From an uncultured Acidobacteriota bacterium (GTDB taxonomy: Bacteria; Acidobacteriota; Thermoanaerobaculia; UBA5066; Gp7-AA6), in the NCBI GenBank assembly GCA_963733815.1, contig CAVTEG010000015.1, positions 171,910 through 235,909 on the forward strand: a stretch of 64,000 nucleotides of DNA, in the 5' to 3' direction. This document shows, piece by piece, positions 2,778-31,100 of the stretch; position 1 is the stretch's first letter; every line of letters starts with the position of its first letter. Below the pieces are notes generated by a model, which made no database searches, was not told the origin of the DNA, and worked only from the letters and a program-made list of their open reading frames with translations. A program made the translations under genes and the position numbers.

Positions 2778-3914
2778 TCAGCCCTCCGTCTCTATCTCAT
2801 AGACGTCGATGCCCGTGCCAAGACTGGAGAAGGTCTCGATCGGGCTCTTCTTCAGGAAGCGCAGCCAGGCGGGCCGGCGGGACTTGCCGAAGATGGCGAG
2901 CGTCACCCCGTGCTCGCGGGCGAAGCGCAGCAGCTCGCGGGCGACGTTCTCGGCCGACAGCCAGACGACTTTGGCTCCGAGCTCCATGGCGAGGGTCACG
3001 TTTTCGTTCAGGAGCCGGTGCTCGCGCGCCGACATCCGCTGGGGGCTCTCCTTGGGCGTCCGGACGTACACCGCGAACCAATTCGTGTTGAGCTTGCCGG
3101 CCATCGCCGACGCACGGCGGAGGAGGCGTCGCGTGGTCTCGGGGTTCGACGAGATCGCGACCATGGCCTTCGTGCCGACGGGTTCCCCGATCACGAACTT
3201 GTCCGTGCCCCTCCTCTCGGCCTCGAGCCGGTCGGCGATCTGCCGCATGGCCAGCTCGCGCAGCGATGCCAGGTTCTCCTCGGTGAAGAAGTTCTGGAGA
3301 GCGGGCTGGATTCGCTCCGGCGGATAGATCTTTCCGGCGAGGAGCCTCTCGCGGAGCTCTTCGGAAGGCAGATCGACGTTCACGACCGCGTCGGCCTGGC
3401 GCAGGATCCGGTCCGGCACGCGTTCCTGGACGTCGACGCCCGTCACGCGCGAGACGATGTCCTGGAGGGACTCGAAGTGCTGGATGTTGACCGCCGACAT
3501 CACCGAGATGCCCGCGTCCAGGAGGTCCTCGACGTCCTCGTACCGCTTGGCATTTTCGGTTCCCGGAACGTTGGTGTGCGCGAGCTCGTCGACGATCACG
3601 GCTTCGGGCCTGCGCCGGAGAATCGCGGGCAGGTCCATTTCCTCTAGGGACTTGCCCTTGTAGGTCACAGTGCGGCGGGGAATGATCTCGAGGCCGGCCA
3701 CCCGCTCGGCGGTCTCGGCGCGACCGTGGGTCTCGATCAGGCCCGCGACGACGTCAATACCCTGTTTCTTCAAGTGGTGGGCGTCTTCGAGCATCTGGTA
3801 GGTCTTGCCGACTCCCGCCGCGTGCCCGATGTACAGCTTGAGCTTGCCGCGGCGCCCCTTCTCGATCAGCTTCAGGAAGATGTCGGCGGTCCGGCGACTG
3901 TCCTCCTGAGGCAT
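2778..3914 (-). CDS. kdpD: KdpD N-terminal sensor domain plus Usp domain, encoded as a separate protein (split KdpD, part 1)
   Basis: The Walker-A-like GHAAGVGKTY is typical of the KdpD N-terminal domain (PF02702), and a USP fold follows. The ORF stops before any TM or kinase region. Confidence 0.85.
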   Translation of the reverse strand: MPQEDSRRTADIFLKLIEKGRRGKLKLYIGHAAGVGKTYQMLEDAHHLKKQGIDVVAGLIETHGRAETAERVAGLEIIPRRTVTYKGKSLEEMDLPAILRRRPEAVIVDELAHTNVPGTENAKRYEDVEDLLDAGISVMSAVNIQHFESLQDIVSRVTGVDVQERVPDRILRQADAVVNVDLPSEELRERLLAGKIYPPERIQPALQNFFTEENLASLRELAMRQIADRLEAERRGTDKFVIGEPVGTKAMVAISSNPETTRRLLRRASAMAGKLNTNWFAVYVRTPKESPQRMSAREHRLLNENVTLAMELGAKVVWLSAENVARELLRFAREHGVTLAIFGKSRRPAWLRFLKKSPIETFSSLGTGIDVYEIETEG

Positions 3915-4514: not shown

Positions 4515-6546
4515 TCAGGCAAGATGAAGGGCCAACACGATCCAGTCGATGAGCTTGATTCCGATGAAGGGCACGATGATGCCCCCGATGCCGTAGATCC
4601 AGAGGTTCCGGGCCAGGATGCGCGCGGCGCCGAGCGGCCGGTACCGGACGCCGCGCAGCGCCAGCGGAATCAGCGCGACGATGATCAACGCGTTGAAAAT
4701 GACGGCGGAAAGAATCGCCGACTTCGGATTCCCGAGGTGCATGACGTTCAGGGCGTTCAAGGCTGGATACGTCGCCGCGAACATCGCGGGCAGGATCGCG
4801 AAGTACTTCGCGACGTCGTTGGCGATCGAGAACGTCGTGAGCGAGCCGCGCGTCATCAGCAGCTGCTTGCCGATCTCGACGACCTCGATGAGTTTCGTGG
4901 GGTTGGAGTCGAGGTCGACCATGTTGCCGGCTTCGCGCGCGGCCTGCGTCCCGGTGTTCATCGCGACGCCGACGTCCGCCTGGGCGAGCGCCGGAGCGTC
5001 GTTAGTTCCGTCTCCCGTCATCGCCACGAGGTTGCCGCCTTCCTGCTCCTTGCGGATCAGGGCGAGCTTCTGTTCGGGCGTGGCCTGGGCCAGGAAATCA
5101 TCCACGCCGGCTTCCCGCGCAATCGCGGCGGCGGTCAGAGGGTTGTCGCCGGTGATCATGATCGTGCGGATGCCCATCGCCCGGAGACGGTCGAAGCGGT
5201 CGCGCATGCCCGTCTTGACCACGTCGCGCAGGGCGATGACGCCAAGGATCTTGGCGTCGTCGGACACCAGCAGGGGCGTCGCGCCTTCCCCGGCAATCCG
5301 GTTGACGAGGTCGTTGACGGCGGGGTCGATCCGGCCTCCCTGAGAGCGGACCCATTCGATGATGGCGTCGCCGGCGCCCTTGCGGATCCTGCGGCCGTTC
5401 AAGTCCACGCCCGACATCCGGGTCGTCGCCGAGAAGGGGATGAAGTGCATGCCCTCGACGTGCCGTCCCCGCAGGCCGAACTTCTCCTTCGCGAGGACGA
5501 CGATCGAGCGGCCCTCCGGAGTCTCGTCGGCCAGCGAAGAGAGCTGCGCGGTCTCGGCGAGGTACGAAGCCGGGACGACTCCGGGCGCCAGGATGAAGTC
5601 CGTCGCCTGGCGATTCCCCAGGGTGATGGTTCCCGTCTTGTCGAGCAGAAGGACGTTGACGTCGCCGGCGGCCTCGACGGCTCGCCCGGACATAGCCAGC
5701 ACGTTGTGCTGGAGGACTCGGTCCATCCCGGCGATTCCGATCGCCGAGAGCAAGCCGCCGATGGTCGTCGGAATCAAACACACGAGGAGCGCGATCAGGA
5801 CGGGTGTCGTGGCTTCCCCCTTGGCGTAGAGAGCGAAGGGTCGAAGCGTGACGGTCGCGATCAGGAAGACGATCGTCAACCCCGCGAGCAGAATCGAGAG
5901 GGCGATCTCGTTGGGCGTCTTCTGCCGGGTTGCCCCCTCGACCAGTGCGATCATGCGGTCCAGGAACGTCTCGCCGGGGTTCGACGTGATCTCGACGACG
6001 ATGCGATCCGAGAGCACCCGCGTGCCTCCCGTGACCGCGGAACGGTCGCCTCCGGATTCCCGGATCACGGGCGCCGACTCGCCGGTGATCGCCGATTCGT
6101 CGACCGAGGCAATGCCTTCGACGACGGTTCCGTCGCCCGGGATGACCTGGCCGGCCTCGACGACCACGCGGTCGCCCTTTCGTAGAGATGTCGCCGGGGT
6201 CTGTTCCTCGCCCTTCTTCGTCAGACGCCGCGCCATCGGTCTCCTGCCGGCCTCGGCGCAGGGCGGCGGCCTGGGCCTTGCCGCGTCCTTCGGCCATGGC
6301 CTCGGCGAAGTTGGCGAAGAGCAGAGTGAACCAGAGCCAGAGAGCGATCTGAAGGTTGAAGAGCACGTCCTTGCCGCGGGCAACGTCGCGAACGAGAAGC
6401 ACGGTCACGAGGACCGCACCGACGAGCACGACGAACATGACCGGGTTCTGCGCCTGCAGCCGCGGGTCGAGCTTGCGGAAGGAATCGCGGATCGCCGGGC
6501 CGACGATGGACCGGTCGAAGAGCTTGTGCGCCCGAGGGTACGCCAT
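4515..6546 (-). CDS. kdpB: K+-transporting P-type ATPase subunit B, interrupted by one apparent frameshift near 6240
   Basis: The N-terminal 100 aa are in the frame of ORF 5098..6546 ([20 protein letters not shown]). The rest, including DKTGTIT and TGDNPLTA, is in the frame of ORF 4515..6383. The junction falls at ALRR / LTKKGEEQ. Confidence 0.8.
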
Positions 6547-8387: not shown

Positions 8388-8471
8388 TCAGATCCGGTCG
8401 CAGCGGCGCGTGTAGACGATCGAGGCCCAAAACAGAAGAATCGTCGCTGCGAGGAAGATCAGGTCCAGCAT
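8388..8471 (-). CDS. Candidate 27-aa hydrophobic peptide between the porin and kdpF
   Basis: Translation gives MLDLIFLAATILLFWASIVYTRRCDRI. A GAGGAG RBS lies 6 nt upstream. It is not in the ORF track because of its size. Confidence 0.3.
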   Translation of the reverse strand: MLDLIFLAATILLFWASIVYTRRCDRI

Positions 8472-8481
8472 CGCTCTCTCC

Positions 8482-9417
8482 TCAGAATGCGTAACCGAGC
8501 TCGATTAGGCCGGCGTTGCCCTTCGAGTCGCCGTTCTTGATCGAGTAGGCGGCATACGCGGTCCAGTGTCCCCCGAACGAGTAGTACAGCCCTGGCGTCA
8601 CGTAGCCGATTGCGTTCTCCCCACTCCACCAGTCGGCGGCGAGCGTCAGGCCCTTGACCCAGGGGAGCGGCTGCTCGAAGGTCGCGAGGGCGCCGCCCGT
8701 GCTTCTCGGCAGCGCGTAGCCCGCCGAGGAATACCACCCGCCGATCTCGATCCGCGTCCCGAGCTTCGGGATCTTGTAGGACGCGAAGCCGTAGCCGAGC
8801 CCGGCGGGGTCCCCGTCCTGGCTGCCCTTCAGAAAGAAGAGACCTTGGCCGCCGGCCGTCAGCGTGAAGTCCCCGGCGCGCACGGGCTGGATCTTGAGGG
8901 CGACGTTCGCGGTCGGGACGATCCCTCCGGGGGAGTTGAAGCCTCCGAAGTTGACGCCTCCCTCGACGCGCGGGAAGAGCCCGACGACGCCGCGAATGGT
9001 CGTCGAGGAGAACTTCGGCTCCGTCGGCCGAAAGAGCTCGTCGACTTCGAGGTAGACCTTCCCCGGATCGAGCACGCTGTCCGAGGGCACGTTGAAGACC
9101 GTCTGCTGGGCGAGCGCCGGCGCGGCGACCAAAGCGAAAGCGAGAATGGCCGCGGCGCGGACAGTCCCGACCCGCCGGCGATCGGGGCCGGGCGCCGGCG
9201 TCGGGCCGCGATCCTCCTCCCTCCATGCCCTGACCTTCACCTTCCAGGTCTTCATAGCGCGGCTCCCGAAATATAGATAACCCACGTACCCTGCGACGAC
9301 GGCGATCACCGCGACCCTGGGCGCGAGTGCCCCGAGTATCATGCCTCCGAGCAGACTTCCCAACGCCAGTCCGGTGAAACGGACGGCTCCTTTTTTCGCG
9401 TTCATGGATAGGAGCAT
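8482..9417 (-). CDS. Outer-membrane beta-barrel (porin-like) protein, in frame with an N-terminal small two-TM module
   Basis: The C-terminal 250 aa show alternating beta-strand patterns and end in the aromatic residue F. An internal signal peptide (VRAAAILAFALVAAPALAQQ) follows a two-TM segment that is paralogous to the upstream 97-aa ORF. The true start may be ATG 9405 or an internal GTG. Confidence 0.55.
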   Translation of the reverse strand: MLLSMNAKKGAVRFTGLALGSLLGGMILGALAPRVAVIAVVAGYVGYLYFGSRAMKTWKVKVRAWREEDRGPTPAPGPDRRRVGTVRAAAILAFALVAAPALAQQTVFNVPSDSVLDPGKVYLEVDELFRPTEPKFSSTTIRGVVGLFPRVEGGVNFGGFNSPGGIVPTANVALKIQPVRAGDFTLTAGGQGLFFLKGSQDGDPAGLGYGFASYKIPKLGTRIEIGGWYSSAGYALPRSTGGALATFEQPLPWVKGLTLAADWWSGENAIGYVTPGLYYSFGGHWTAYAAYSIKNGDSKGNAGLIELGYAF

Positions 9418-9418
9418 C

Positions 9419-9469
9419 CCTCCCCTCCGGAAAAGAAGTCCGGAGGGAGTTCGAAAGAGTTTCGAAAGG
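9419..9469 (-). promoter_or_regulatory. Leader motif copy 1 (anti-SD hairpin plus tandem CTTTCGAA) in the 5' UTR of the small-TM/porin gene
   Basis: The mRNA reads CTTTCGAAACTCTTTCGAACTCCCTCCGGACTTCTTTTCCGGAGGG. CCCTCCGG pairs with CCGGAGGG (8 bp) and overlaps the SD. The region is about 85% identical to copy 2 over about 43 nt. Confidence 0.35.
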
Positions 9470-9474
9470 CGAGT

Positions 9475-9768
9475 TCAGGTTCCATCGGGAAGGCGGATGC
9501 CCAAGCGGCGCGGCGCTGGCCGGGAAGAGAGGCCTCCCTGACGCTTGGTTCGGGATGCGGCCAGAAGTCTCGCCGCGTCGGCTCCGTTGAAGGCGCATCC
9601 GATGAGACCGAGGGCGACGAGAACCAGCCGCGAGAACGGGTCGGCCGAGGCGGCGCCGGCGAGAACGCCGCCGACGAGGCAGGCGAGGGCGAGGGCGGTG
9701 TATTCGAGAGCGGCGCGGTGTCGTTTCGAGTCGGGTACGTCTTTCAAGGTTCCCTCCAGACCGGGCAA
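9475..9768 (-). CDS. Small two-TM membrane protein (paralog of the N-terminus of the porin ORF)
   Basis: TALALACLVGGVLAGAAS...LVLVALGLIGCAF aligns with GLALGSLLGGMILGALA...VIAVVAGYVGYLYF in the downstream ORF. The track start is TTG. An alternative TTG at 9747 has a better GGAGGG RBS. Confidence 0.4.
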   Translation of the reverse strand: MPGLEGTLKDVPDSKRHRAALEYTALALACLVGGVLAGAASADPFSRLVLVALGLIGCAFNGADAARLLAASRTKRQGGLSSRPAPRRLGIRLPDGT

Positions 9769-9826
9769 GTCTGGCGGGGTGGGCGGAAAGAAGTCCGGAG
9801 GAGGCCCGAAAGAAACTCGAAAGATG
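9745..9826 (-). promoter_or_regulatory. Leader motif copy 2, with alternative hairpins involving the SD of the 97-aa ORF
   Basis: The same conserved 43-nt block is present (GCGGAAAGAAGTCCGGAGGAGGCCCGAAAGAAACTCGAAAG). A local palindrome CCAGACCGGGCAAGTCTGG lies at 9751-9769, and the CCUCC tract is complementary to GGAGG of the SD. Confidence 0.35.
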
Positions 9827-9833
9827 CCCGCAC

Positions 9834-9923
9834 GTCATCCCGAGCGAAGCGAGGGATCCCGTGCTTTCTGCGAGTGTTGCGGATCGAGTTCGGGATCCCT
9901 CGGGCTCACGCCCTCGGGATGAC
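9834..9923. repeat. About 90-bp palindromic intergenic repeat element (copy 1) immediately 3' of kdpE
   Basis: GTCATCCCGAGCGAAGCGAGGGATCCC ... GGGATCCCTCGGGCTCACGCCCTCGGGATGAC forms terminal inverted repeats. A second copy lies at 21946-22036. Confidence 0.5.
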
Positions 9924-9928
9924 AGGGG

Positions 9929-10609
9929 CTACCCCTCCGGCGAGAAGCGGTATCCGACCCAGGGCTCCGTCCGGATCCAGTGCGGCTGGTTCGGGTCGTC
10001 CTCGAGCTTGCGCCGGAGGCTTCCCATGTGGACGCGGAGTGTGTCGTTCGTGACCCCGGCCGTGGTGCCCCAGACGGCGGCGAGGAGCTGGCGGTGAGTC
10101 CACACGGCCCCGGGCTTTTTCAGCAGAGTCACGAGGATCGAAAACTCGATCGGCGTCAGATGGACTGGCCGGCCCGCCTTTTGGACGGTCCGGGCTTCCG
10201 GGTCGACCTCGATGTCCGCCCATCGAGTGATCGTCTCGTTCCGGGCGGCTTCGCGCCGCCGCAACAACGCACGGGCGCGCGCCAGAAGCTCGGCGACACC
10301 GAAGGGTTTGGTCACGAAATCGTCCGCTCCCGCGTCGAGAAGGCGGACCTTCTCCCGCTCTTCGCTGCGCACGGTGAGGATCAAGATCGGGACGCTGGAG
10401 CTGCGGCGGATTTCCTGAACCAGCTCGAGGCCGCCCACGCGGGGCATGGCGAGGTCCGTGACGATGAGGTCGAACCGTCCCTCCTCGAACTCCTCGAGCG
10501 CCTCGTGGCCGTCGATCGCCGAGACGACGTTATGGCCTTCCCGCTCAAAGGCATCGCGAACGACTTTGCGGATCCCGGGCTCGTCGTCCGCGACGAGCAC
10601 CCGGCTCAC
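9929..10609 (-). CDS. kdpE: OmpR-family response regulator KdpE
   Basis: The receiver domain carries the DD/D/K signature (VLVADDEP..., LIVTDLAMP), and a winged-helix output domain follows. It overlaps the kinase gene by 4 nt. Confidence 0.9.
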   Translation of the reverse strand: MSRVLVADDEPGIRKVVRDAFEREGHNVVSAIDGHEALEEFEEGRFDLIVTDLAMPRVGGLELVQEIRRSSSVPILILTVRSEEREKVRLLDAGADDFVTKPFGVAELLARARALLRRREAARNETITRWADIEVDPEARTVQKAGRPVHLTPIEFSILVTLLKKPGAVWTHRQLLAAVWGTTAGVTNDTLRVHMGSLRRKLEDDPNQPHWIRTEPWVGYRFSPEG

Positions 10610-12045
10610 GCGGCGCTCCGGGGGAGAGCGATCTCGAAGAGGGTTCCTCCGCCTTCGGCTTCGCTGAGCCGCAGGCGCCCTCCGTTCAGGGCGACGAGGC
10701 TCCGAGCGATGAAGAGGCCGAGCCCGCTGCCGGGCACCTGCGCATCATCCTCGAGACGGACGAACCGCTCGAAGACGTGTTCGCGCTCGGAGGCCGGAAC
10801 TCCCTTGCCCTGGTCGGCAACGCGGATATAGACGGCGTTTTCGTCGGAGGCGACCCAGACGCGGATGGTGGAGCCGGCGGGAGAGTAGCGGGCGGCGTTC
10901 TCGAGACCGTGGCCGAGGGCCTCCGTCAGCTGCGCCGGGTCGACCTCGACGGTCAGCCCCTGGGCCGGCGGGTCGATAAAGAGGCTATGTTCCGCGAGCG
11001 CGTCGCCGAATCGCGCCACGGCCGCCTCCACGATCTCTCCGCAGCTGACGGTTTGCGGGCGCGGCCGAGCGGTACCGGCGTCGAGGCGGACGACGTCCAT
11101 CAGTTCGGCGATGCGGCGGCCGAGGGTCGAGAGCTGCTCGCCGGCCAGCCTCGAGGCCTCCGAGCCGCCGCTCGATGCTTCCCAGTTCTCGATGGCGCCG
11201 CGCGCGGCGGCAACCGGGGTCTTCAGGTCGTGAGCGAGCTGGGCGAGCAGCGTCGACTTCATCTGCTCGCTCGTCCTCGTCTCTTCGCCCGCCCGCGCCA
11301 GGCGCAGAAACCGCTCGCGCTCGACGGCAAGCCCGAGCAGGAGCGCGCAGGCCTCGGCCATCCGCTCGCTCGACCGCAGGCCGCGCGCGACGAGGGTCCC
11401 CGCGCGCTGGAGCCCGACGGGAATCGGGAGATAGATGTCGGTGCCTCCGAGATCGGAGGGATACGCCGCGGAGTTGCCCTGCCGGAACGCCAGCTCGGCG
11501 AGGTCGTGGCGGACCTCGACGTCCCCCGTCGCCGTCCGCTGCGAGAGCTCGCCCTTCTCGTCCGCCAGCAGGATGGCGACCTGCTCGCAGTGGAGGGCCT
11601 GCCGGAGACGGTCGGCCGCGACGCCCAGCAGCGTCTCGCGATTGGTGTCGGTCAAGAAGCCTTGCGAGAGCTGCGTCAGCCCGATCAGGTCGCGGCGCTC
11701 GGACTCGAGCAGTCCGAGCCGCCGCCGTGAAATCGCCGAGAGCCGCCCGATCAACAAGCCCGAGACGAGGAAGACGAAGAGGGCGGAGACGTTGCGCGGA
11801 TCCTGGATCGTGAGCGTATAGAGAGGCGGCAGGAAGAAGAAGTTGAACCCCAGCGTCGCGACCAGCGCCGCGACGACGCCCGGGCCGCTCTGCCAGACCG
11901 AGGCGCAAAAAAAGACGGCCAGCAGGAGGAGCAGTGCGACGGAGGAGTCCGTCAGCTCCGGAAAGAGCTTGAGGAGCCCGACCGTCGCCGCGACGACGAG
12001 GATGGACGCCGGGTAGCCGATCCACTTCCTCGTCGCGATCTTCAT
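10606..12045 (-). CDS. kdpD: KdpD C-terminal half: 4-TM domain (DUF4118), GAF, HisKA and HATPase (split KdpD, part 2)
   Basis: The sequence contains FNFFFLPPLYTLTIQDP (KdpD TM signature), the H-box HDLKTP and the G1/G2 boxes. It lacks the N-terminal KdpD/Usp domains, which are encoded at 2778-3914. Confidence 0.9.
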   Translation of the reverse strand: MKIATRKWIGYPASILVVAATVGLLKLFPELTDSSVALLLLLAVFFCASVWQSGPGVVAALVATLGFNFFFLPPLYTLTIQDPRNVSALFVFLVSGLLIGRLSAISRRRLGLLESERRDLIGLTQLSQGFLTDTNRETLLGVAADRLRQALHCEQVAILLADEKGELSQRTATGDVEVRHDLAELAFRQGNSAAYPSDLGGTDIYLPIPVGLQRAGTLVARGLRSSERMAEACALLLGLAVERERFLRLARAGEETRTSEQMKSTLLAQLAHDLKTPVAAARGAIENWEASSGGSEASRLAGEQLSTLGRRIAELMDVVRLDAGTARPRPQTVSCGEIVEAAVARFGDALAEHSLFIDPPAQGLTVEVDPAQLTEALGHGLENAARYSPAGSTIRVWVASDENAVYIRVADQGKGVPASEREHVFERFVRLEDDAQVPGSGLGLFIARSLVALNGGRLRLSEAEGGGTLFEIALPRSAA

Positions 12046-14274: not shown

Positions 14275-14350
14275 TGTGGGGTAGTTGAGCTGGTACAACG
14301 TCCGGCTGTTAACCGGAAGGTCGGTGGTTCGAGTCCACCCCCCACAGCCA
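14275..14350 (+). tRNA. tRNA-Asn (anticodon GTT)
   Basis: The cloverleaf was folded by hand: acceptor TGTGGGG/CCCCACA, D arm GTTG/CAAC, anticodon stem TCCGG/CCGGA with loop CTGTTAA, T arm GGTGG-TTCGAGT-CCACC, discriminator G and an encoded CCA. Confidence 0.85.
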
Positions 14351-20553: not shown

Positions 20554-21991
20554 GGCGCACCCGCGCAGACGCCGGCTCTCGCGGCGCAAGTTCCTCGGCG
20601 AGGCGGGCCTCGCGCTCGCCGCCGGAGCGTTCCCGGCCCTCTCGTGCGCGCGCCCCGAGAAGACGGCGGCGGCCGCGGCGCGCAAGACGCTGCGGATCCT
20701 GCAGTGGAGTCACTTCGTGCCCCGCTACGACGCCTGGTTCGATCGCGTCTTCACGAAGGAGTGGGGCGCGAAGAATGGAACCGACGTGATCGTCGACCAC
20801 ATGGCGGCGACCGAGGTCAACGCAAGGGGCGCCGCCGAGGCCGCCGCCGGCAAGGGCCACGACCTCTTCCTGTTCATCTCTCCGCCGGCCGCATACATCG
20901 ATCGCGTCATCGACCACCGCGAGATCGTCGAAGAGGTCGAGCGGCGGCACGGCAAGATGATTCCCCTGGCGCGGAAGTCGATCTTCGACCCGAAGAGCGG
21001 AAAGTACTTCGCGTTCTCCGATTCCTACGTCCCCGATCCCGGCAACTACCGGATCGATCTCTGGCGGGAAGTCGGTTTCCCGAATGGCCCCGACACCTGG
21101 GAGGACCTCCGCGTGGGCGGCCGGAAGATCAAGGAGAAGTTCGGCAACCCCGTGGGCATCGGCCTGTCTCAGGAGATGGACTCCAACATGGCCCTGCGCG
21201 CGATCCTCTGGTCCTTCGGGGGCGCCGAGCAGGACGACGCAGGGCACGCCGTTCTCAACTCGCGAGGGACGATCGAGGCGCTGAAGTTCGTGCGCGCGCT
21301 CTACGAGGAGACGATGACGGCGGAGGTCTTCACCTGGGATCCGTCCTCCAACAACCGCATGATCCTCGCCGGAAAAGCGTCGTTCATCTGCAATGCGATC
21401 TCCGTGACGCGCACCGCCGAGCGCGAGAACCGGGCGATGGGCGCGAAGATCGGGCTGGTGCCGACGTTGAAGGGACCGGTTCGGCGGATCGCCGCCGAGC
21501 ACGTCATGAACTGCTACGTCATCTGGAAGTTTGCCGAGAACATCGACGGCGCCAAGCAGTTCCTGGCAGACCTCGTCGGCAGCTTCGCGTCCGTTTTCCG
21601 CGAGAGCGAGTTCTACAACTTCCCGTGCTATCCGACGACCGTGCCGGATCTGGCGCAGCAGCTCGCCGACGACCCGAAGGCGGACCCGAAGGGTAAGTAC
21701 GCCGTCCTCTCCAATGTCCTCGACTGGGCCACCAACGTCGGCTATCCCAGCTACGCCACACCCGGAATCGACGAGGTCTTCAACACCTTCGTCATTCCCA
21801 CGATGTTTGCCCGCGTTGCGCGAGGGGAACAGACTCCTGAAGCGGAGGCGGAGGCGGGGCAAAGGGGAGTGGAGCGGATTTTCAAGAAGTGGGCGCGAGG
21901 CCGGCTCGATAAGGTCTTTCGACGAGAGGCCGTCGAGCGCCGCTTGTCATCCCGAGCGAAGCGAGGGAGCCCTTTAGGCGCGGTCGTGTGA
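20552..21991 (+). CDS. ABC transporter substrate-binding protein (Tat signal); the C-terminal about 15 aa are encoded by the palindromic repeat
   Basis: The twin-arginine signal is RRRRLSRRKFLGEAGLALAAGA. It is about 75% identical to the frameshifted copy at 39346-40666. The ORF tail ...SSRAKRGSPLGAVV lies inside repeat copy 2. Confidence 0.8.
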   Translation: MAHPRRRRLSRRKFLGEAGLALAAGAFPALSCARPEKTAAAAARKTLRILQWSHFVPRYDAWFDRVFTKEWGAKNGTDVIVDHMAATEVNARGAAEAAAGKGHDLFLFISPPAAYIDRVIDHREIVEEVERRHGKMIPLARKSIFDPKSGKYFAFSDSYVPDPGNYRIDLWREVGFPNGPDTWEDLRVGGRKIKEKFGNPVGIGLSQEMDSNMALRAILWSFGGAEQDDAGHAVLNSRGTIEALKFVRALYEETMTAEVFTWDPSSNNRMILAGKASFICNAISVTRTAERENRAMGAKIGLVPTLKGPVRRIAAEHVMNCYVIWKFAENIDGAKQFLADLVGSFASVFRESEFYNFPCYPTTVPDLAQQLADDPKADPKGKYAVLSNVLDWATNVGYPSYATPGIDEVFNTFVIPTMFARVARGEQTPEAEAEAGQRGVERIFKKWARGRLDKVFRREAVERRLSSRAKRGSPLGAVV

Positions 21992-22036
21992 CTTAGAAAG
22001 GGATCCCTCGGGCCTGCGGCCCTCGGGACGATGGAC
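21946..22036. repeat. Palindromic intergenic repeat element (copy 2)
   Basis: GTCATCCCGAGCGAAGCGAGGGAGCCC ... GGGATCCCTCGGGCCTGCGGCCCTCGGGACGATGGAC. It is the same family as 9834-9923. Confidence 0.5.
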
Positions 22037-22369
22037 GACCGCGCTACGCGGTAAACGCTGGCTTCCGCCAGCGTTGCCTGCTTCCGAGGGTCTGCCTTCG
22101 GTGGCCGGCTCGTCCATCGAAAAAATGGGCGGCCCTTCGACCGCCCGGAGGATGGAGGGGCGGGATCCAGCGCCCGCCCTTTCGACTCGGAGCCCTGATG
22201 CTGCGGATGGGATCCAACGCCCATCCGGTTCCGAACGCGATTGCTTTACAAGACTGTACGGACCAGAAGTCGCGGTCAACAAATTATTGATTTCCAGTAA
22301 GTTAGTATGTCAATTCGTGAAAAGCGGCGGTTGTAAAGCCGTTGATGATGTAAATTCACACGCAAAGCG

Positions 22370-28119: not shown

Positions 28120-31100
28120 TCACGCTTTCTCGATTTTCACGAGGAACGCCTTGTACTCCGGCGTCCAGGTGTTCGGGTCCATCGCGGACGGCGTCAGGTG
28201 GTTCGCGAGGGGGCCGGTGTGCCCGGTGTTGCCGGCGGCATACCCCCAGTGGAGCGGGAAGCCGATCTGCCAGATCTCCTTGCCGTCGACTTGAGCTTGA
28301 TGCAGCCGTTTCGTCACCATCGCGACGCCCTGCACGGAGCCGCGCGCGCGACGTGACCTTGACCTGAGATCCGTTGGCGATTCCCTTCTCCTTGGCCAGG
28401 CTCTTCCGGGATCTCGACGAAGAACCCGGGCTGGAGCTGGTTCAAGCCTGGGTGTGCTTGGTCCAGTAGTGGTACATCTCGGTGAGCCGGTAGGTCGTGC
28501 ACGACGATGGGAAAGTCGTACGGTTTCCGTAGACGTCCTTGTCGGATGTGAACTTCTTGGTGGCCGGGCTCGACGCTGACCTTCGGGTGGAGCAGGTTGT
28601 CGACGGGCGCTTCGATCGGTTCGTAGTGCTCGGGGAACGGACCGTCGTTCAAGCGATGCGGCGAAGAGCCGGCCCACGCCTTCCGGCAGCATGATGAAGG
28701 CGCCCGTACTCGCCCGGGCGGCGAGTCGGGCTTGATGTCGGGCACGTCGCCGACCCATTTCTTGCCGTTCCACACGATGCCGGGCCGCTTGGGATCCCAG
28801 GCTTTGCCCTGAGCGTCCGCAGACGCGCGGTTGTACATGATCCGGCGGTTGGCGGGCCAGGAGAAGGTCCAGTTGTGGTACATGCCGAGGCCTGTCGGGT
28901 CGGCGGTCGAGCGGCGCTGCGTGTTGTTGCCGGCCTCGGTGTAGGCGCCCGATGTAGAGCCAGTTGCCGCACATCGTCGAGCCGTCGTCCTGGAGCTGGC
29001 CGAAGCCGTCGAGCTGCTGGCCCGCGGCTTGCACGGAGGCTTCGTCTTGTCCTTGGGGTCCGGGATGTCGGCGACGGCCTTGCCATTCATCTCCTTGAGG
29101 CACTTCGCCGAGATCGGGATTGACCGGGTTGGTGTAGTCCCACGTCGACGTTGAGCGACCGGCTCCGGGACGCGCGCCGCCTTCCTTGCGCGTACAGGTC
29201 GCGAACCGCGAGGAAAATGCGCGCCATGATCTCCTGGTCGGCCCTGGCCTGGCCCGGCGGATCGACCGCCTTCCACTTCCACTGCAACCAGCGCGCGCGA
29301 GTTGGTGAAGCGAGCCGTCTTTCTCGGCGAAGTCGGCGGCGGGAGCTGGAAGACCTCGGTCTGGATCTTCGAGGCATCGGGCGTCCCGTATTCCTTGGGT
29401 GGCCTTCCAGAAGTGGCGGTCTCGATCTCGAAGTTCTCCGACGACCAGCCACTTCAGCTTCGAGAGAGCGGCGATGACCTTCGGCGTGTTCGGCCCGATG
29501 CCGACGGGGTTCATTCCGAACGTGATCAGGCCTTCGGGCGCCGGCTCCTTGCCGCCGGCGCGGTCGAGGTGCCGCGATACATGTCGTCGAAGATGTACAT
29601 CCAGCGAATAGTTGCCGTCGACCTTCGGGAGCCAGGCAGTACCCGAAGTCGTTTTCCTTGGTGGCGTTCTTCCCGTACAGGGCCTTCAGCAGCGAGACCA
29701 TGAACTTCGGATAGTTGCGCCAGTAGTTCATCGAGGCCCAGGCGCTGTTTGTTGAACGTCGTCGGAGTCGCGTCGGTCAGGTAGTCCTGCAGCGTCTGCG
29801 ACGGGCCCGCGAGGCGTCTTCATGTAGCCGGGCAGGATCTCGAACGTTCCCGCCCATGTCGGTGGCGCCCTGGATGTTCGAGTGGCCGCGCAACGCGTTG
29901 ACTCCGCCGCCGGGACGGCCGACGTTGCCCAGCAGCAGTTGCAGCATCGCCGCGCACCGGATCATCTGCACGCCGATCGAGTGCTGCGTCCAGCCCAGAG
30001 CGTACATAATCGTCCCGACGCGTCTCGGGCGGATACGATCGATGTGACGATCTCGGCCGACCTTGAGGAACTTGTCCTCGGGCGTGCCGCAGATGCGCTC
30101 GACCATCTCCGGGGTGTAGCGCTCGACGTGCTTCTTCAGGAGCTGGAAGACGCAGCGCGGGTCCTGCATCGTCGGGTCGACCTCGTAGGCCTTGCTCTTC
30201 GGGTCGGCCTCGTACGCCCAGTTGGTCTTGTCGTACTTCCCGATGCCTCGTCGAATCCGCTGAAGAGGCCCTCGTCGAAGCCGTACTTCTCGCCGATGAG
30301 ATAGGGCCGCGTTGGTGAAGAGCTTGACGTACTCCTCGTGGAAGCGCTTCTGCTCGATGGCGTAGCGGATGATCCCGAGCAGGAAGGCGATGTCGGTGCC
30401 GGCGCGGATCGGGGAGTAGTAAGTCGGCGACCGCAGCGGTGCGTGTGAAGCGCGGATCGACGGCGACGAGCTTGGCACTGCGGTTGCTGCTGGGCTTCGA
30501 TCGCACCACTTGAACCCGCAGGGATGGTTCTCGGCGGGATTGCCGCCCATGGCCAGGATCGACATCGGCGTTCTTGATGTCGATCCAGCCGTTGGTCATG
30601 GCTCCGCGCCCGAACGTGGCGGCCAAACTGGCCACCGTCGGGCCGTGTCAAACCCGGGCCTGGCTGTCCCGGTACGACACCCCCAGGGCCGCGACGGACT
30701 TTCCACTGCAAGAAGTTGAATTCGTTCGTGTCGGTGCAGCCGCCGATCATCGCGATGCCGGGGTTGCGATTGACGGTCTGGCCCTTGGCGTTCTTGGCGA
30801 CGAAGCACCGGTCGCGCGTGTCCTTGATGTGTCGCGCGATTCCGGCGATCGCATCGTCCCAGGAGATGTCCTCCCAGTTGTCCGAGCCCGGCCGGCGGAC
30901 CTTCGGCGTCAGCAGACGGTCGGGATTGTTGATGTCGTCGCGGAGAGTCGAGCCCTTCGGGCAAAGCGTTCCGCGGTTGATCGGGTGTTCGGGATCGCCT
31001 TCGACGTGAACGACGGCGGGTGTCGACGTTCTTGCGCCTTGTCGCCCAGCGTGTGAATGATCACTCCGCAGGAGACCGCGCAGTACGGGCAAGTACTTCG

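Follow-up and report, generated by a model that had tools for sequence, protein, structure and literature searches.

What is the role of a short element that occurs twice ahead of the kdpFABC genes of an uncultured Acidobacteriota bacterium? The window, i.e. the whole 64 kb stretch of DNA analysed here (contig CAVTEG010000015.1, positions 171,910 to 235,909), carries the element on its minus strand, as it does all of the relevant genes. One copy precedes each of two small membrane protein reading frames, and the second of these continues in frame into a predicted outer membrane porin. A sequence-only reading had taken the two copies for 5′ untranslated regions (UTRs) in which a hairpin sequesters the Shine-Dalgarno (SD) sequence. 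That reading holds up for most of what it observed in the sequence, but not for the regulation that it proposed. The element is very probably an activator-dependent promoter of the KdpE type that acts as DNA and has been duplicated, and not a leader RNA. The promoter itself is ordinary in kind; the least expected part of the locus is the conserved precursor behind it, which joins a two-transmembrane (2-TM) module, a signal peptide, and a porin. The breadth of the candidate regulon is also less ordinary.

Sequence and geometry of the repeated element

The copies are designated putative promoters U (upstream) and D (downstream). They and the open reading frames (ORFs) directly behind them are, in order of transcription:

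9785–9824, minus strand: promoter U, repeat array (units R1 9824–9818, R2 9813–9807, R3 9802–9796, R4 9791–9785)
9796–9791, minus strand: GGACTT of promoter U, in the ungapped register common to 64 genome and 107 metagenome copies
9768–9773, minus strand: −10-like hexamer CAGACT of promoter U (A at position 2, T at position 6), 17 bp after GGACTT
9752–9757, minus strand: SD sequence GGAGGG of small ORF1, judged genuine, inside a leader of ~14 nt
9475–9747, minus strand: small ORF1, a 90 aa two-TM protein with start TTG 9747 (ORF list, family alignment)
9430–9469, minus strand: promoter D, repeat array (R1 9469–9463, R2 9458–9452, R3 9447–9441, R4 9436–9430)
9441–9436, minus strand: GGACTT of promoter D, in the same ungapped register as the other copies
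9435–9419, minus strand: spacer of promoter D, CTTTTCCGGAGGGGAGG, 17 bp, the stretch of variable sequence between GGACTT and the −10
9413–9418, minus strand: −10-like hexamer GATGCT of promoter D (GATGCT or GATCCT at the same column in most copies)
9247–9405, minus strand: predicted two-helix N-terminal membrane module from ATG 9405, MNAKKG... (homologue starts, −10 distance, AlphaFold2)
9109–9246, minus strand: basic disordered linker and signal-peptide-like hydrophobic segment ending ...APALA before QQ (AlphaFold2, alignment)
8482–9108, minus strand: predicted mature 12-stranded beta-barrel with a KdgM-like porin fold, stop codon included (AlphaFold2, Foldseek)
9417–8482, minus strand: porin ORF as mechanically listed, 311 aa

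The two copies share an ungapped direct repeat of 37 nt (9432–9468 versus 9787–9823) with 81% identity, and in the wider block about 31 of 39 positions are identical by our own count on the pairwise alignment. The repeat reported earlier is thus real, although 85% over 43 nt, as given for it, is a slight overestimate. The tandem motif TTTCG-N6-TTTCG was also correctly located, since it is found at exactly two sites in the 64 kb, both in the element, where 0.06 are expected by chance. With a weight matrix derived from 157 foreign copies, promoter D scores 73.7 bits and promoter U 67.3 bits, and the rest of the window reaches 12 bits at most. The DNA upstream of the two genes is ~80% identical versus 31% for the proteins encoded behind it, and therefore the constraint is on the DNA.

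When the 64 genome and 107 metagenome copies are stacked on GGACTT, all display one ungapped layout, which consists of four TCTTyCG direct repeats with a period of exactly 11 bp, an invariant GGACTT, a variable spacer of 17 bp, and a −10-like nAnnnT. The repeat units start at columns −28, −17, −6, and +5, and with the start codon taken as the predicted +1 the array spans ~−63 to −24. As 11 bp is one helical turn, the repeats all face the same side of the helix. The genome copies were located with a template that excluded the TC prefixes, unit R4, and the −10 columns. Conservation extends to these positions as well, e.g. columns −28/−27 have T in 47 and C in 59 of the 64 copies, columns −17/−16 have T in 63 and C in 64, and column −5 has C in 55. 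In the −10 hexamer, A is present at position 2 in 62/64 and T at position 6 in 63/64 copies, against background frequencies of ~15% A and ~17% T; in bacterial −10 elements these two positions are the most important ones. R1 and R2 are as conserved as R3. GACT, which separates R3 from R4, does not vary, whereas the other inter-repeat spacers do, and it may be a residual −35 contact.

The distance from the −10 to the start codon is 6 nt in 31 of 65 genome copies, 7 nt in 15, and 9 nt in 7. In this main class only 6–9 mostly C-rich nucleotides separate the −10 from the ATG or GTG, and there is no SD sequence among them. A minority class, to which promoter U belongs, shows a 16–24-nt stretch with GGAGG; the arrangement of promoter U, with the SD sequence, 4–6 nt, and the start, is also displayed by the leadered relatives L035/36/38, L037, L042, and L043. 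A MAFFT alignment of the two window copies had placed a 21-nt gap between them. This gap is contradicted by the common ungapped register and was rejected; it is an artefact that arises because a leaderless promoter (D) was aligned with a leadered one (U).

Start codons and the proposed mechanism

The supposed SD tract of the porin gene, GGAGGGGAGGG, falls in the spacer of promoter D. The ATG at 9417 lies inside the GATGCT hexamer, and its A is the invariant −11 A of the −10. The position of this ATG is not conserved, since many copies read GATCCT and not GATGCT; the GGAGG-rich spacer is not conserved either, and most copies have no SD sequence. The porin start is likely ATG 9405 (MNAKKG...), predicted to be leaderless, because homologues begin MNAKR or MNTKRKA and because 7 nt follow the −10 hexamer. 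The stretches had been described as 5′ UTRs, but their geometry is rather that of a promoter. Thus an attractive annotation can be corrected: what appeared to be RNA switch, SD sequence, and start codon is better read as promoter, spacer, and −10 box. TTG 9768, mechanically listed as the start of small ORF1, overlaps the −10 hexamer of promoter U. An internal porin start at M55 was considered and rejected, as it is not conserved, homologues having L or V there.

Leaderless genes have been found to carry a TANNNT-like signal ~12 bp upstream of the start codon, of which only the TA...T positions are informative in high-GC phyla (PMC3160421). As in the leaderless mRNAs of Actinobacteria and Deinococcus-Thermus (PMC3160421), the −10 here begins 12–13 nt before the ATG and is followed by no SD sequence. 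The present case differs from the leaderless mRNAs of high-GC bacteria in the first base of the hexamer, which is G or C, and in the phylum, Acidobacteriota (class Thermoanaerobaculia). A search for specific literature on acidobacterial leaderless genes found none. The prediction made here is that the first gene of the kdp operon is expressed leaderless.

Conservation, geometry, genomic association, and the lack of RNA covariation form the basis from which we infer KdpE binding, the points of transcription start, leaderless translation, and responsiveness to K+. Under K+ limitation the split KdpD kinase would phosphorylate KdpE, and KdpE~P would bind head-to-tail on R1-R2, probably on R3-R4 too, and would recruit RNA polymerase to an intrinsically weak promoter (cGGACTt, a 17–18 bp spacer, and gAtgcT). 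From copy D, transcription would start at or beside the A of ATG 9405 and yield a leaderless mRNA for the 2-TM module/signal peptide/porin gene, a 27-aa ORF, kdpFABC, and the KdpD N-terminal protein. From copy U, the same promoter would drive the paralogous small 2-TM gene by way of the ~14-nt leader, a real SD sequence, and the TTG start, with a predicted transcription start near 9761. The element had been placed inside the kdp transcription unit; its position is instead after kdpE and ahead of the structural genes, where the kdpFABC unit begins.

Conservation in genomes and metagenomes

The sample of porin orthologues consists of 45 genome loci that encode homologues of the 311-aa protein. 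In 45/45 of these loci the tandem motif precedes the porin gene and is on the same strand as that gene, with a 1-nt indel in L044. Absence of the motif from orthologous loci would have refuted the sequence-only reading by its own test. The motif is present in all of them, but what is conserved in it is the geometry of the DNA, not an RNA structure.

An independent metagenome search was made with TCTTTCG-N6-YTCCGGACTTCTT, which represents units R2 and R3 and GGACTT only, and gave matches in at least 120 contigs. All metagenome counts below are among the matches listed, with column counts from the 107 unique copies that have flanks. The −10 columns were not used in the search, and they show A in 100/107 and T in 98/107 copies. 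R1 is found as TCTTTCG, TCTTTAG, CCTTTAG, and CCTTTCG. The distance from the −10 to the start codon is again 6 nt in 53 of the 107. A kdpE-like gene ends no more than 1.3 kb upstream on the same strand in 42/82 testable contigs, and kdpA lies within 3.6 kb downstream in 16/27; some kdp-related gene is found on the contig for 79 of 122 instances. In some contigs the promoter is found directly before a hydrophobic ORF of 38–39 aa, with kdpA ~240 nt downstream of the motif. A few of the matches are due to chance; these lie inside coding regions and are without R1 and −10. The linkage in the window and in the metagenome contigs bears out the earlier view of a cis-regulatory element that is conserved and associated with kdp.

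The motif also precedes genes outside the kdp operon. A Kup K+ transporter (K_trans, 1e-187) is found behind it, and the other genes in this position encode Usp-domain proteins, BBP2 and Phenol_MetA_deg barrels, HAMP-PAS kinases, a DUF4118-GAF protein, and an OmpR-family regulator. As the motif precedes kup, Usp, barrel, kinase, and regulator genes, the data suggest that the motif-linked genes form a K+ regulon broader than kdp. The contigs with such genes are L160 (3209–5119), L068, L050, L106, L046, L080, and L069. The motif is specific enough that kdp loci, and a wider candidate K+ regulon (kup, Usp, several porins, kinases), can be picked out of metagenomes directly.

Some loci display three copies of the promoter in a row, e.g. 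L030 (3007/3338/3761) and L033 (3424/3850, and on the minus strand). In these, each copy stands before a different small membrane protein, including members of a family that starts M(R/Q)K(R/A)ESRW(L/R)RRRR.

KdpE as the candidate binder

The response regulator gene of the window ends ~100 nt upstream of promoter U. The best PDB match of its product is E. coli KdpE (4KNY, 3.3e-55, versus 3.4e-41 for the next family), and R193, R200, and T215, residues needed for DNA binding, are aligned and conserved. This neighbouring KdpE-like regulator is the putative binder of the repeats. Properties of sites of the OmpR/PhoB type are found here in the 10–11 bp spacing of direct repeats, in the placement at the −35 of the predicted promoter, and in the linkage to kdpE and kdpFABC.

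A similar geometry is known from PhoB. Its pho-box promoters (e.g. pstS, with tandem boxes) are activator-dependent and produce leadered mRNAs; the 11-bp direct repeats, with sequence CTGTCAT, replace or overlap a poor −35 and end ~10 bp before the −10. The four phased units that reach to ~−24 here resemble tandem pho boxes, but the regulator, the signal, and the repeat sequence differ.

The KdpE site of E. coli, TTTATA-N5-TTTACA, has an 11-bp period and an invariant TT (PMC3264566). Like the E. coli kdpFABC promoter, the element consists of 11-bp direct repeats with an invariant TT, upstream of a kdp promoter and adjoining kdpDE. However, the E. coli box has two units, whereas four phased units reach through the −35 region here, and the half-site TCTTyCG, in a GC-rich genome, is unlike that of E. 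coli. Other differences from E. coli are the gene order (kdpDE, promoter, kdpFABC), an mRNA that is predicted to be leaderless, and the duplication or triplication of the promoter ahead of accessory genes. In the high-GC Mycobacterium smegmatis, the footprinted KdpE site of PkdpF is CCGTAAAGAAACCATCAAGGCC, 22 bp, which reads ...TTTCTTTACGG on the reverse complement (PMC5401905) and in that orientation is close to the TCTTTCG/TCTTTAG unit. PkdpF differs in having a single 22-bp site, a 120-nt 5′ UTR, and a SigF-like promoter (PMC5401905). A comparison of half-sites shows TT and a T-rich TTTC/TTTA core in common with the E. coli and M. smegmatis sites, and a 3′ half of CG versus AYA. As of 2017, KdpE sites had been mapped in four species only (PMC5401905). 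The present element provides a precise model of a KdpE-type operator/promoter for Acidobacteriota, which is open to testing.

RNA structure and alternative explanations

As RNA, a 71-nt stretch of copy D folds at −27 kcal/mol (z = −3.67), with an 8-bp stem CCCTCCGG/CCGGAGGG and a second stem formed by two TTCGAA palindromes; copy U folds less distinctively (z = −1.6). The two arms of the 8-bp stem are located in R3 and in the 17-bp spacer. The stems arise in the window because the cores TTCGAA and TCCGGA are palindromic and the spacer happens to contain CCGGAGGG. Thus the stem proposed earlier can be formed by copy D, but the GGAGG before ATG 9417, which it was thought to mask, is probably no SD sequence. 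RNAalifold shows no consensus structure in 123 unique copies of the leaderless class (−0.5 kcal/mol). If nine registers are permitted for the 8-bp stem, 23 copies can form 7 or more of its 8 pairs, versus 21.7 ± 2.5 with arms swapped between copies, and 201/500 controls equal or exceed the observed number. Essentially no hairpin is present in the orthologous porin promoters L001_3853, L013_3943 (−1.9 kcal/mol), L008_4423 (−2.9 kcal/mol), and L031_4393. Rfam gives nothing at the gathering threshold, the sole match below it being SAM-VI on the opposite strand (22.7 bits versus 57.5). The hairpin is organism-specific and is rejected as a conserved feature.

These results bear on the explanation that the copies are transcribed 5′ leaders in which CCUCC pairs with a GGAGG SD sequence to form a thermometer-like or ligand-responsive translational switch. 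The good fold of copy D, the GGAGG 6 nt before ATG 9417, and the closest homologue P0002, which also starts MLPSMN, speak for it. However, such a switch is very unlikely given that the copies share no consensus structure, that the stem is no more frequent than in the swap control, that several orthologous promoters (L013, L008) are nearly free of hairpins, that neither the position of the ATG nor the SD sequence is conserved, and that no Rfam family is matched; the strict 11-bp period and the fixed distance to the −10 are properties of DNA. The CCUCC...GGAGG hairpin that can be drawn before an ATG in this window recalls RNA thermometers (ROSE, fourU) and translational riboswitches, but here it is without conserved structure, covariation, or a conserved SD sequence or start, and transcripts from the element's own promoter probably do not include the element. 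A combined role is likewise highly improbable. In this, the element would be a KdpE promoter as DNA while the hairpin of copy D would modulate translation or stability of the porin message in read-through RNA of this organism. Only 7 nt lie between the stop codon of small ORF1 and R1 of copy D, with no terminator between, the window hairpin is among the strongest of all copies, and there is a weak overall excess of complementarity. Yet the hairpin is not kept even in close relatives and shows no covariation, and loci with a single promoter retain the same sequence features.

A promoter for an alternative sigma factor, either of the extracytoplasmic function (ECF) type or a stress sigma, would have CCGGACTTCTT as its −35, with the repeats incidental and no response regulator involved. 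ECF promoters have the −35 sequence GGAAC(TT), which GGACTT resembles, and the invariance of GACT, in distinction from the other inter-repeat spacers, would also fit. SigT- or SigF-type promoters have been reported for the kdp operons of Caulobacter and M. smegmatis (PMC8552747; PMC5401905). This explanation is improbable all the same, as R1 and R2, at −63 to −46, are too distant for contact with sigma but are as conserved as R3. The −10 has the housekeeping A(−11)/T(−7) pattern and not the CGT/TC type of ECF sigma factors, and there is no adjacent sigma or anti-sigma gene, while roughly half of the listed contigs that are long enough to test have a kdpE-like gene close to the motif. Finally, the similarity of the copies might reflect a recent tandem duplication or gene conversion, or a repeat like the repetitive extragenic palindromic (REP) elements or miniature inverted-repeat transposable elements, with no regulatory role. 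The element does stand before two adjacent paralogous genes and a genuine REP-like element adjoins it at 9834–9924, but this possibility is extremely remote, and the comparative data refute it: the coding regions have 31% aa identity versus ~80% for the DNA element, the distance to the start codon is fixed in more than 150 contigs and before unrelated genes too, and only two occurrences are present in 64 kb.

Several observations weigh against an activator-dependent KdpE promoter. A scan of the locus with a generic sigma-70 consensus found no promoter and so lends no positive support, a result that is expected because the promoter would be activator-dependent. The −10 hexamer starts with G or C and not with T, and the half-site is TTTCG here versus TTTAYA in E. 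coli. The best NCBIfam match of the regulator is KdpE, but its score of 211 bits is below the model cutoff of 325, and for this reason the assignment as a KdpE orthologue rests on genomic context and on the best PDB match. The downstream copy lies in any read-through transcript from promoter U, and because no terminator is present between the copies the hairpin could exist in such RNA; the window scan gave 2 terminator-like matches, about as many as chance predicts (1.3). The minimum free energy of the segment from R3 through the −10 gives a mean z of −0.76 against copies with their own spacers shuffled, with 19% of copies below −2. When spacer/−10 segments are swapped between copies, 8/200 swaps are at or below the observed mean, a borderline figure that is inflated because the set contains close relatives. 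The slight excess of complementarity between spacer and R3 leaves a small probability for a minor structural role.

The 2-TM module/porin precursor

The product of the gene behind promoter D has 166 homologues at E ≤ 0.001, and many of the 120 listed cover 98–100% of its length. The few that carry a source name are assigned to Thermoanaerobaculia. In an alignment of 30 sequences, down to about 46–48% identity, the N-terminal module has the consensus MxxKRKA...LA...L.GG...V.AGF.GYV.CGRRAM.LW.VDE.VF, and the sequence A103-Q104-Q105-T-I-F-N-V-P is nearly invariant. Module, variable basic linker, signal-peptide-like segment, and barrel are in one reading frame across the aligned homologues. Thus the earlier observation that the second small protein continues in frame into an outer membrane beta-barrel is real and holds in homologues. 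Of the two possibilities left open then, two proteins from alternative starts or a fusion, the fusion is favoured since the frame is kept through linkers of variable length; it is possibly processed into two products.

AlphaFold2, run on the 30-sequence alignment (mean pLDDT 75; numbering of the 311-aa ORF), predicts helices at positions 5–31 and 33–57 (pLDDT 76–90), followed by a disordered linker at 61–108 (pLDDT < 50) with a short helix at 84–94 that is the signal-peptide core. Twelve strands are predicted across residues 121–310, the barrel having a pLDDT of ~70–93. A Foldseek search of the PDB with the barrel finds VhGalP (8xua, E = 1e-6, TM-score 0.68), KdgM (4fqe, TM-score 0.80 on the target), and 4pr7 (TM-score 0.76). 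The predicted barrel of ~205 residues is like the 12-stranded monomeric porins of the KdgM/NanC type at the level of the fold only. It differs from these in having no Pfam or NCBIfam sequence match, in the location of its gene in a kdp operon, and in the module and long basic linker before the signal peptide. No specific literature was found on porins in kdp operons.

The two small modules were said to be paralogous, and as profiles they are homologous (hhalign 97.6%, E = 4.5e-12, 52 columns); the pairwise similarity, 31% over 51 aa with E = 0.3, is not significant. Stand-alone modules of 60–130 aa carry the same promoter. A profile search with the 2-TM module gave 17 short stand-alone proteins and no fusions, although, given the word-index limit of the search, it says little on distribution. 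The same design of N-terminal extension is found, behind the same promoter, in BBP2 (OmpL-like) barrels (L090 162–1589, L065, L067). Their extension has two TM helices, a basic linker, and a signal peptide (...LSATA before QEP), and the barrel is unrelated in sequence to the window porin.

The distribution of charges and the A-x-A before QQ fit a topology in which the N-terminus and the basic linker are cytoplasmic, the helices between them form a hairpin in the inner membrane, and a cleavable signal anchor follows; we infer this topology for the precursor. It is tentatively suggested that the module is itself a functional inner membrane protein, made together with the porin and cut from it by signal peptidase after ...ALA and before QQ, which would give a 1:1 ratio to an outer membrane entry channel for K+ that is co-induced with KdpFABC. 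The basis for this suggestion is that stand-alone paralogues carry the same promoter and that the design of module, signal peptide, and barrel recurs with the unrelated BBP2 family. If it is true, Acidobacteriota would have an accessory system for high-affinity K+ uptake that spans the envelope and has not been described before. The conserved precursor may thus have a role in K+ uptake across two membranes.

Other features of the locus

The remaining features of the locus, again in order of transcription, are:

10606–12045, minus strand: sensor histidine kinase, the C-terminal part of KdpD (Pfam DUF4118-HisKA-HATPase_c)
9929–10609, minus strand: KdpE-like response regulator of the OmpR/PhoB family (Pfam Response_reg and Trans_reg_C)
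9834–9924, minus strand: REP-like long inverted repeat, directly 3′ of the kdpE stop codon (fold −52.2 kcal/mol, z = −4.95)
8388–8471, minus strand: hydrophobic ORF of 27 aa between the porin gene and kdpF, MLDLIFLAATILLFWASIVYTRRCDRI (ORF list)
8378–8289, minus strand: kdpF (ORF list, Pfam Potass_KdpF)
8284–6557, minus strand: kdpA (ORF list)
6546–4515, minus strand: kdpB, frame broken near 6235 (ORF list)
4505–3924, minus strand: kdpC (ORF list)
3914–2778, minus strand: separate protein with KdpD N-terminal and Usp domains (Pfam KdpD and Usp)

KdpD is split. The N-terminal sensor with Usp is encoded at the 3′ end of kdpFABC (2778–3914), and the membrane/kinase part is encoded upstream with kdpE (10606–12045). 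In kdpB, the N-terminal part (from ATG 6546) and the remainder (to 4515) are in different frames, the switch being at ~6233–6237, between ...RQET and ARRL.... A 1-nt indel at GATGG would restore the frame, and the break is either an assembly error or the mark of a pseudogene. Scrambled stretches are also found in several homologues from similar metagenome-assembled genomes (P0056, P0091, P0099).

The 27-aa ORF, the porin, and small ORF1 have no Pfam or NCBIfam match at E ≤ 0.01. ORFs of 38–39 aa that resemble the 27-aa ORF (MEPTLDILFVLLTLGFF..., MLDYAFLILILGFFW...) are found directly behind the same promoter in L049, L071, and L156.

The REP-like repeat has the sequence GTCATCCCGAGCGAAGCGAGGGATCCC ... 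GGGATCCCTCG... and may serve as an insulator or terminator of the kdpDE transcript, or it may be a dispersed palindromic element. The same architecture is seen in a second copy 12 kb away, at 21946–22040, and single matches are found in L110 and L162. Elsewhere in the window, a bacterial SECIS element (RF01989, 70.8 bits) at 30595–30653 on the minus strand implies a selenoprotein gene, and a tRNA gene is found at 14275–14347 on the plus strand.

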